Virus record (IMG/VR): IMGVR_UViG_3300034072_000578
Coordinates: 1-64,000 of that record
Reading direction: 5' to 3' (one strand)
DNA length: 64,000 nucleotides
Source: a virus
Part shown: positions 57,600 through 58,417 of the stretch, in pieces
Layout: each line of letters opens with the position of its first letter
How positions within the stretch are numbered: the stretch's first letter is position 1
The notes under the pieces: generated by a model
Seen by the model: only the letters and a program-made list of their open reading frames with translations
Database searches by the model: none
What the model was told of the DNA's origin: nothing
Translations under genes and position numbers: made by a program

Positions 57600-58417
57600 C
57601 ACCGGCAAGGAAACGAACCGGTCGCTGCTTGAAGCGGATAAGCTAGAGTAATCTGGTGAAAGGTTAGGAGCCAAACCAAGCCGCCTAGTAATAGGTCAAC
57701 TTAAGCAACATGGAACTGACCGAAAGGTTCCTCTATACAAGTAGGGGATAGATTGAAGGATAAGGGTTTTAGGTCCGAAAGGATAACTAGCAGAGCTAAT
57801 CGGTGAGCTAGTGAAGTCGCAAACACCTGCACCAAGCAAAACTTATTCGAAGTCGATAGTGAACCATAAGGGTAATAGTTCGACCATTAGCGTGGAAGAG
57901 CATTAGCCAGTTACCAAAGGTGGAGACACTTTACGTAACCGTTGAGTAGCCCGCAAGGCGAAAGACATGAGGCGTGTGGCATGTTGTTCCCCAAAAGGGA
58001 ATGATACCATTGGACAAGCACGTCTTAACTGGAAACAACTTAGCATAACGGTAATGCGATGGACTCTTAATCCATTGATTGTTGGTTCAAATCCAGCAGT
58101 TGATTCATCAACGCAAAGCCTTGTCCAGCTATAAGTGAAAGGCACCTAAGCCCTACCTAGAGTGGGGGCATGAAGTCTCGCAAGGATGGATTGTTTGTAG
58201 TGGAAGAACTCATTGCTCTTTAGCGGGAGCTTAATGGAGGTAAAACTTCAATGGGATTAAGATACTATGAGTAGCTTGTAGTGATATCGCAAATGCCAGC
58301 GATTAATAAAATGGCGGTGTTGGTAGTTACTATGATACCTTGACCGGGTTATAGTGGAAAAGGCCCTAAACAATAAGGGGTTTAAGACTGCCCTTAGTAA
58401 GTGTATTCTCAGCTTGC
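57600..58417 (+). ncRNA. GOLLD-like giant structured RNA
   Basis: About 820 nt with no credible ORF, many GNRA-capped hairpins (GAAA, GCAA), embedded tRNA, 3' end GTGTATTCTCAGC, next to tRNAs in a phage; recognised from memory of the family, not by search. Confidence 0.7.
58034..58105 (+). tRNA. tRNA-Lys(CTT) embedded in the GOLLD-like RNA, no CCA
   Basis: D arm GCAT/ATGC, ATGGA-CTCTTAA-TCCAT, GTTGG-TTCAAAT-CCAGC. Confidence 0.75.

Follow-up and report, generated by a model that had tools for sequence, protein, structure and literature searches.

The window, by which we mean the whole stretch of DNA analysed here, is the first 64,000 nucleotides (64 kb) of the 108,412-bp virus record IMGVR_UViG_3300034072_000578, which has terminal repeats and is rated complete. 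Positions 57600-58417 (+), about 818 nt, are a full-length GOLLD RNA gene with both domains present, and a 72-nt tRNA-shaped module with the anticodon CUU (Lys type) lies in its linker. That this element is a GOLLD member carrying a linker tRNA is close to certain. The account that covered all the observations best, and that is probably correct, is a GOLLD RNA that would form a cage like its solved relatives and would keep the module as a tethered, anticodon-bearing part.

GOLLD RNAs belong to the largest non-coding RNAs of bacteria and phages. They are encoded by phages or prophages near tRNA islands, sometimes with a tRNA in the linker, and their function is still unknown while the cage has been solved (PMC12286853, PMC12990946, PMC6582537); the background given in an earlier note on this DNA, made from the letters alone, agreed with these papers. 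A GOLLD with a linker tRNA is already published and the window locus is ordinary for the family. Taken alone it adds little, and the handle on function is the comparison of embedded tRNAs.

Identity and architecture of the GOLLD RNA

The Rfam GOLLD model RF02032 matched 57967-58415 (+) over its full length (positions 1-416 of 416) with a score of 183.6 bits and an E-value of 4.7e-50, the Rfam gathering score being 150 bits, and a whole-genome covariance-model search repeated the match (E 1.9e-53). The Rfam model describes the conserved 3' half only and leaves the 5' half outside. For the latter, the 5' regions of 34 further phage GOLLDs, the window being excluded, were combined into an nhmmer profile, which matched 57636-57963 (E 1.5e-17). 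RNAalifold on 11 diverse GOLLD 5' domains gave 68 consensus pairs, 52 of which showed compensatory double changes, and the 5' domain was pairwise-homologous throughout to that of the relative L073. Because the folding energy of the 5' half reached a z-score of only -2.1, which is weak evidence taken alone, the case for a structured 5' half rests on the covariation. Four open reading frames (ORFs) of 47-80 aa across the GOLLD region had no Pfam match, and no other non-tRNA Rfam family, ROOL included, matched the window. The family call in the earlier note, for which a search with the Rfam model had been proposed as the check, thus proved correct once that search was run, with a score well over the threshold and a homologous 5' half; its description of about 820 nt of non-coding, structured RNA was borne out by the two matches, the covariation and the ORFs without Pfam hits.

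Compared to the Lactobacillales-prophage and lake GOLLDs, which score 250-320 bits, the window RNA with 183.6 bits lies in a divergent branch (150-210 bits). A score below the typical range would suit a new large RNA or a protein-coding stretch in place of GOLLD, but the full-length match above the cut-off, the homologous and covarying 5' domain, the lack of other Rfam families and the ORFs without Pfam matches refuted this alternative, and the probability left to it is negligible.

The 5' domain, which is the variable half, was assigned to 57600-57966 (+) on the basis of the nhmmer profile, the covariation and the homology to L073. According to the cmscan alignment, the conserved 3' domain opens with a hairpin (model positions 1-62) at 57967-58028 (+), which has a 9-nt bulge at 58011-58019, and the remaining 3' domain occupied 58129-58415 (+), reaching model position 416 with the GUGUAUUCUCAGC hairpin as its final element. 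The variable linker at 58029-58119 (+) consisted of a 5-nt spacer, the tRNA-like module and a 14-nt spacer, and it fell on model positions of about 63-140, which are unpaired; no part of the GOLLD family is less conserved than this linker. A helix of 9 bp with one G·U closes it, and its 5' strand UUGGACAAG (58010-58018, +) and 3' strand CUUGUCCAG (58120-58128, +) were identified from the sequence and from compensatory changes. Because its 5' strand is supplied by the 9-nt bulge in the first 3'-domain hairpin, this helix shuts off the linker in the manner of a pseudoknot. Among 14 distinct GOLLD variants, each of the four central pairs occurred as 3-5 standard pair types, for instance in L073 (CUGCGGCAG/CUGCCGCAG) and in Caulobacter phage phiCbK (CUGGACCAG/CUGGUCCAG). 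The enclosing helix had been reported before as TGGACAAG/CTTGTCCA; it is real and covarying, but it is one pair longer than had been stated.

A tRNA-Lys(ctt) was called by ARAGORN at 58034-58106 and scored 61.3 bits with the Rfam tRNA model at 58034-58105 (+), which together with the reading of the sequence confirmed the cloverleaf without CCA and with one acceptor mismatch that had been noticed earlier. The elbow was intact (U8, A14, G18 G19, G53-C61 and UUCAAAU), and the 7-nt anticodon loop CUCUUAA (58064-58070, +; anticodon 58066-58068), a hot spot of variation, kept U33 and a purine at position 37. The acceptor AACAACU/AGUUGAU contained one mismatch, A58035·A58103 (2:71), and only 2 G-C pairs. 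The discriminator was U58105 (U73) and was followed by CAUC, hence no CCA is encoded. A73 is the discriminator of bacterial tRNA-Lys, and both free tRNA-Lys of the phage end in A73-CCA, whereas the module has U73. CCA was encoded in 25 of the 26 phage tRNAs, the embedded module being the sole exception.

A strict search with the 3'-end motif recovered 41 viral contigs, all confirmed as GOLLD, and most of them belonged to proviruses of about 40 kb, in which tRNAs follow closely downstream of GOLLD but none lies inside it. The divergent branch of the window RNA showed the motif GAGUA-N-CCCGCAAGG-N-GAAAGAC ahead of the first 3'-domain hairpin, and its linkers contained a tRNA-like element or short hairpins; in L073 a Lys(UUU) module was located at exactly the position of the window module. 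The branch included phiCbK and its kin (JX163858.1, 105042-105528, 165.3 bits), whose linker insert is annotated as tRNA-Gly(TCC), and Phaeobacter phage MD18 (MT270409.1, 169.6 bits), whose linker insert is annotated as tRNA-Arg. These phages can be cultured, so the subclade can be tested at the bench. Like the RNAs of phiCbK and MD18, the window RNA had the subclade motifs around the first 3'-domain hairpin, and its tRNA-like insert, which occupies the same position as theirs, likewise lacks CCA and has a mismatched acceptor. It differed in its anticodon and in having no permuted tmRNA adjacent, and the identity was about 70% or less. Ruegeria and Sinorhizobium phages gave partial DNA matches to a GOLLD of the L149 type, being known from the DNA match and not from an Rfam score, and in one match of this kind (DSS3_MAL1) a tRNA-Arg was annotated under the matching GOLLD. 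With an exact-flank pattern around the module, no near-identical relative was detected in metagenome or viral contigs, and a near-identical copy was found only in sequencing runs. As a separate observation, a permuted two-piece tmRNA lies a few hundred bases from GOLLD in phiCbK (L080: 702-1020, 1529-2015) and in MD18 (L185: 636-1103, 1369-1657), and GOLLD itself is unannotated in both records.

In GOLLD a variable 5' domain precedes a conserved 3' domain, and the RNA assembles without protein into cages of 10-14 copies (PMC12286853, PMC12990946). The structures solved by cryo-electron microscopy are the env-38 14-mer (PDB 9MEE) and the Streptococcus agalactiae 12-mer (9L0R) (PMC12286853, PMC12990946), and the env-38 linker is disordered and faces the cage interior (PMC12286853). 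The window RNA resembled both in the 3' domain match, the two-domain layout of about 800 nt, the linker after the first 3'-domain hairpin and the phage and tRNA-island setting. Differently from env-38, in which the linker is a 42-nt disordered stretch, that of the window holds a 72-nt cloverleaf, and the multimers seen are those of the solved RNAs. By homology with these structures, the window GOLLD would fold into separate 5' and 3' domains and self-assemble into a closed cage of 10-14 copies, and the linkers would face inward, so that each subunit would place one tRNA-shaped module in the lumen. Cage formation by the window RNA is thus predicted from relatives and is considered very likely.

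In a Mycolicibacterium GOLLD, a tRNA-Phe is located in junction J13/15 and "inhibited storage" was proposed for it (PMC12990946); the insert in the M. aubagnense GOLLD was called a pseudo-tRNA, and Northern blotting detected GOLLD but no separate signal for the insert (PMC6582537). The window shares with the mycobacterial GOLLD a tRNA-shaped insert at the same linker place (J13/15) and a tRNA array of phage origin, but the mycobacterial insert is of the Phe type, located in horizontally acquired arrays on the chromosome and from another host phylum, whereas the window insert is of the Lys type with CUU and sits in a complete phage genome. ROOL is similar to GOLLD in its phage and tRNA-island location, its self-assembling nanocage, its disordered internal linker and its unknown function (PMC12286853). 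However, ROOL is unrelated in sequence and fold, and tRNAs embedded in ROOL were not found reported. The tRNA-like domain of the bacterial Y RNA YrlA (an RNA mentioned in PMC9569102), tmRNA and the 3' tRNA-like structures of plant viruses are tRNA folds within bigger RNAs that engage tRNA-recognising proteins. They compare with the GOLLD module in the way they work and not by homology, and unlike the GOLLD module with its variable anticodon arm, they have a fixed sequence and known partners.

Embedded modules compared with free tRNAs

A pattern composed of the hairpin strand, the T-loop and the post-linker motif selected 93 viral loci, from which 57 non-identical embedded and 584 free tRNAs were obtained. 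An encoded NCCA was present in 4/57 embedded and 489/584 free tRNAs, and at least one acceptor position was unpaired in 55/57 and 70/584, respectively (Fisher 9e-42). In the 43 loci where nearly all free tRNAs encoded CCA, only 2 embedded tRNAs did so. After de-replication at 80% identity, an unpaired acceptor position was retained in 21 of the 23 embedded clusters, and CCA was found in 3 of the 23. Anticodon loops of a length other than 7 nt occurred in 7/57 embedded tRNAs (six of 8 nt and one of 6 nt) and 2/584 free ones, and those of 8 nt were restricted to the embedded set (6/57 vs 0/584).

The anticodon spectrum was also compared. Lys CUU was carried by 15/57 embedded and 12/584 free tRNAs, Arg UCU by 9/57 and 11/584, Leu UAG by 8/57 and 23/584, and Met CAU by 0/57 and 75/584. 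The window loop CUCUUAA was the commonest among the embedded tRNAs (15/57). Among the 50 embedded loops of seven nucleotides, U33 was retained in 48 and a purine at position 37 likewise in 48, and the embedded loop is therefore still shaped like an anticodon loop. The embedded anticodon was redundant with the free set in 9 of 27 partial loci. When the window module was compared with the 57 embedded tRNAs and some 600 free ones, a pool that is about 90% free, 25 of its 30 nearest tRNAs were embedded in GOLLD; its D arm was common to other embedded tRNAs, and it lay closer to these than to free tRNA-Lys.

These results suggested that the embedded tRNAs form a class of their own, without CCA, with a frayed acceptor top and with changing anticodons. 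No description of this class pattern was found in the literature searched. A Leu anticodon on a scaffold with a short arm was considered as a sign of non-function and was dropped, since free CCA-ended tRNA-Leu with a short arm occur in these phages. Instead of the usual long-arm type, free tRNA-Leu genes whose variable arm is short, whose D stem has 3 bp and whose D loop has 11 nt were observed in L078, L094, L098, L106, L142, L163, L168 and L171.

Anticodon exchange and the possible role of the module

When tRNA scaffolds were clustered at an identity of at least 93% with the loop masked, more than one anticodon was found in 4 of 9 embedded clusters and in none of the 86 free ones (p 4e-5). 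One scaffold cluster, for example, united L082 and L094, which have the loops CUCUUAA and AUUGAAG, and CUCUUAA recurred on several different embedded scaffolds. In some GOLLD pairs the identity was 96% outside the tRNA but fell to 62-68% within it, so that the whole cassette must have been replaced. L149 and L169 were 99.2% identical outside the tRNA; inside it, the anticodon loop and one D-loop base differed, and the sole further difference in the GOLLD body was a compensated pair in the terminal hairpin.

The same was seen for the window GOLLD itself. A 532-nt contig from the wastewater run X6, covering 57709-58240, differed from the window at six positions (58059, 58063, 58066, 58067, 58071 and 58095), all of which fell inside the 72-nt tRNA, with a chance of about 6e-6. 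The anticodon CUU was changed to UCU (Arg type) in this variant, and the stem pair A58063-U58071 to C-G. A partner for the anticodon loop within GOLLD, forming a kissing loop, was searched for and rejected, as no matching two-base change occurred elsewhere in L149/L169 or in the X6 variant; whatever else differed was confined to the D-loop base, one pair of the terminal hairpin with its compensation, and positions 57702 and 58294, each with a single polymorphism. The embedded loops were also not consistently self-complementary. Targeted A-mutagenesis of the retroelement type was rejected because the six X6 changes were not A-specific, and gene conversion from the free tRNA-Arg(UCU) of the phage was rejected because its anticodon stem is unlike that of the X6 variant.

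These changes bear on the view that the insert is a decaying, functionless pseudo-tRNA, captured since GOLLD lives in tRNA arrays and has a tolerant linker. Many linkers of the subclade contained no tRNA and only short hairpins or T-loop remnants (L075, L076, L077, L074, L173 and L183), and this view can also draw on the low conservation of the linker and on the name pseudo-tRNA given to the M. aubagnense copy (PMC6582537). However, stems were kept by compensatory change, including the A-U to C-G change of the X6 variant, U33, the purine at 37 and the elbow nucleotides were retained, CUCUUAA was present on several scaffolds, and the anticodon spectrum was strongly non-random. A functionless relic is accordingly regarded as very improbable.

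The module lacks the acceptor-end features of the real tRNAs of the phage and varies where a decoding tRNA is fixed, and an attached module is therefore the simplest reading. The unpaired acceptor top suits an inserted domain, because the two ends of such a domain must diverge to their attachment points. Judged from these features, a tethered, non-canonical module is somewhat favoured over a routinely released tRNA. In the mechanism proposed, the module would not be among the working tRNAs of the phage and, as the comparison with free tRNAs suggests, would belong to a class of cassettes resident in GOLLD, which may be replaced, or altered at the anticodon, within an otherwise unchanged GOLLD. 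It would mostly remain covalently attached, with its specificity set by the anticodon loop, and a factor that recognises the anticodon arms of tRNAs would either be offered the module or be kept from it. The embedded class suggests that the anticodon arm is the surface that does the work and argues against simple storage of ordinary tRNAs.

Several points weigh against a tethered module. AAG is the preferred Lys codon of the phage (1180 vs 655 AAA), and the module supplies the only CUU anticodon among its 26 tRNAs. The cloverleaf scores like the free tRNAs, with all tertiary-contact nucleotides present, and acceptor mismatches also occur in some free tRNAs of the phage. Host enzymes can mature phage tRNAs that lack CCA, as in T4. 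Selected by the T-loop motif and ARAGORN, the comparison set falls short of a full census, and it consists of members related to each other. The predicted cage, moreover, is extrapolated from relatives with far higher scores on the Rfam model (250-320 bits).

The first of these points favour a genuine elongator tRNA-Lys(CUU), for which GOLLD would serve as precursor or store. RNase P and a 3' nuclease would excise the tRNA, perhaps upon cage opening late in infection, and a host enzyme would add CCA, after which AAG would be read; the idea was published as "inhibited storage" or timed release (PMC12990946, PMC12286853). Besides the codon usage, the single CUU, the high tRNA score and the intact elbow, it is supported by the common embedded anticodons, which read AAG, AGA and CUA, codons frequent in this phage, and by the embedded Lys(CUU) and Arg(UCU), which were mostly the sole copy in partial loci (10/12). 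On the other side, the module is the only tRNA of the genome without CCA, has U73 compared with A73 in both free tRNA-Lys, and contains the A2·A71 mismatch. The phage encodes no CCA-adding enzyme; a genome search for tRNA-maturation and repair genes found neither PolyA_pol nor RtcB. The near-identical X6 GOLLD carries Arg UCU at this place, though the phage already has a free tRNA-Arg(UCU). The embedded cassettes further include Ser anticodons without a long arm, the six 8-nt loops and the single 6-nt loop, and no separate RNA was seen in M. aubagnense (PMC6582537). Taken together, storage of a working tRNA is possible but unlikely.

If the module stays tethered, one version of this reading is a sponge, in which the 10-14 anticodon arms of a cage would soak up tRNA-cleaving defence or toxin nucleases, or tRNA-modifying enzymes, and thereby spare phage and host tRNAs; the anticodon changes would then track the specificity of the local host nuclease. 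A display or decoy role had been called plausible in the earlier note, with Lys as a frequent target of anticodon nucleases; such a role is possible, and it gains indirect support from the missing maturation features of the module and from its fast-changing anticodon. The anticodon loop as a hot spot on a constant scaffold, with U33 and the purine at 37 kept, is consistent with this, as are the enrichment of Lys(CUU) and Arg(UCU) and the absence of Met CAU among embedded tRNAs. Phage tRNAs can counter tRNA-targeting defences, and close to the second tRNA cluster the phage encodes an RNA ligase, a type of enzyme that serves in tRNA repair. However, the linker is expected inside the cage, which would hinder access, and the classic Lys anticodon nuclease PrrC targets the UUU isoacceptor and not CUU. 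Selection for codon supply or simple cassette recombination could also yield the same pattern. The sponge is thus quite unlikely in its own right. Doubt of a like degree attaches to the broader proposal that GOLLD inserts are exchangeable anticodon-display cassettes on an unmaturable scaffold, re-coded in an arms race with host readers of the anticodon arm, most likely tRNA-cleaving defence nucleases; if true, it would give GOLLD its first function, that of a multivalent RNA sponge protecting the tRNA pool in infection.

Genome setting, transcription and neighbouring tRNA-like elements

The phage genome had a GC content of 45.7% and 26 tRNA genes, and GOLLD was located inside the tRNA region, preceded by the probably terminated vWA-TerB-TerC unit and followed by a second cluster, which consists of tRNAs and tRNA mimics. 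The portal protein resembled those of Rhizobium phage RHEph10 and of SSU5-like Klebsiella phages, with an identity of about 48%, and both the GOLLD relatives and the portal relatives were found in phages of Alphaproteobacteria.

The vWA-TerB-TerC set (tellurite-resistance-type stress genes by Pfam) lies at 55691-57447, immediately upstream of GOLLD. Just past the TerC stop codon (57445-57447), a GC-rich hairpin followed by a T-run was read at 57460-57489 (+), which the consensus terminator scan did not list. It probably terminates the upstream unit, and GOLLD would therefore form a separate transcription unit. A candidate promoter, TTGCAC-17 nt-TAGATA, was recognised at 57566-57594 (+); its spacer contains the palindrome CGAATCGATTCG, which comprises two GANTC sites, and transcription from this promoter would begin at about 57600-57602. 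The sigma-70 scan called no promoter upstream of GOLLD, the -35 of this candidate being too weak, and the loose pattern TTG[AC]NN-17/18-TAGAY showed no enrichment in the genome (10 sites vs 9.3 in shuffles). GANTC, the CcrM methylation motif, was present in the spacer of 4 of these 10 sites, about 4x chance, and only this subset stood out (genome positions 55588 and 57566 on the plus strand, 66947 and 68897 on the minus strand). These promoter-like sites fit an alphaproteobacterial host. The first terminator-like site downstream of GOLLD in the terminator scan was at 59426-59441 (+), and because no such site precedes it, GOLLD may be co-transcribed with the tRNA mimics (58429-58766), tRNA-Lys(UUU) and tRNA-Leu(UAA).

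In public data, DNA of the window was present in subsurface and soil metagenome runs, and parts of it in wastewater libraries labelled RNA-Seq. In RNA-labelled wastewater and seawater libraries of four studies, contigs covered parts of 57609-58394 and the downstream tRNA-mimic region, with near-identical GOLLD pieces within 57609-58394 in runs X6, X8, X15 and X16. The flanking coding sequences were essentially uncovered, which was not counted as absence, and low-depth pieces of them were seen only in run X8, which is flagged as probably DNA; some of the other RNA-labelled libraries may hold DNA as well. Contig starts at 57609 and 57625, near the predicted start, gave a weak hint, although contigs cannot show transcript ends, and one contig crossed the GOLLD 3' end (58319-58469). 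A transcript of about the extent covered by the contigs is thereby weakly hinted at. As a speculation, if the wastewater and seawater molecules are RNA, the GOLLD particle may persist unusually long outside cells.

Further tRNA-related peculiarities were observed in the genome. The tRNA mimics follow directly after GOLLD. The mimic at 58480-58552 scored 33.4 bits with the Rfam tRNA model and had three acceptor mismatches and a deformed anticodon arm, and the mimic at 58657-58763 (36.9 bits) had a perfect acceptor with GCCA and 53 nt in place of the 17-nt anticodon arm. An RNA ligase (PF09414, 47 bits) was encoded at L184:1093-2136 (-), genome 84912-85955, beside an RNase_T-type exonuclease; it lies near the second tRNA cluster at 79.8-83.2 kb and may have a function in tRNA repair. 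The first free tRNA-Lys(UUU), at 44959-45034, had the anticodon loop ACUUUAG, with C instead of U at position 33. Finally, a CCA-ended tRNA at 53498-53574 (Rfam 57.3 bits) combined a perfect acceptor with an 8-nt anticodon loop, CCCCUAAU; ARAGORN read a 4-base anticodon, 'ccta', the loop contains CUA, and this tRNA may be an amber or quadruplet reader.

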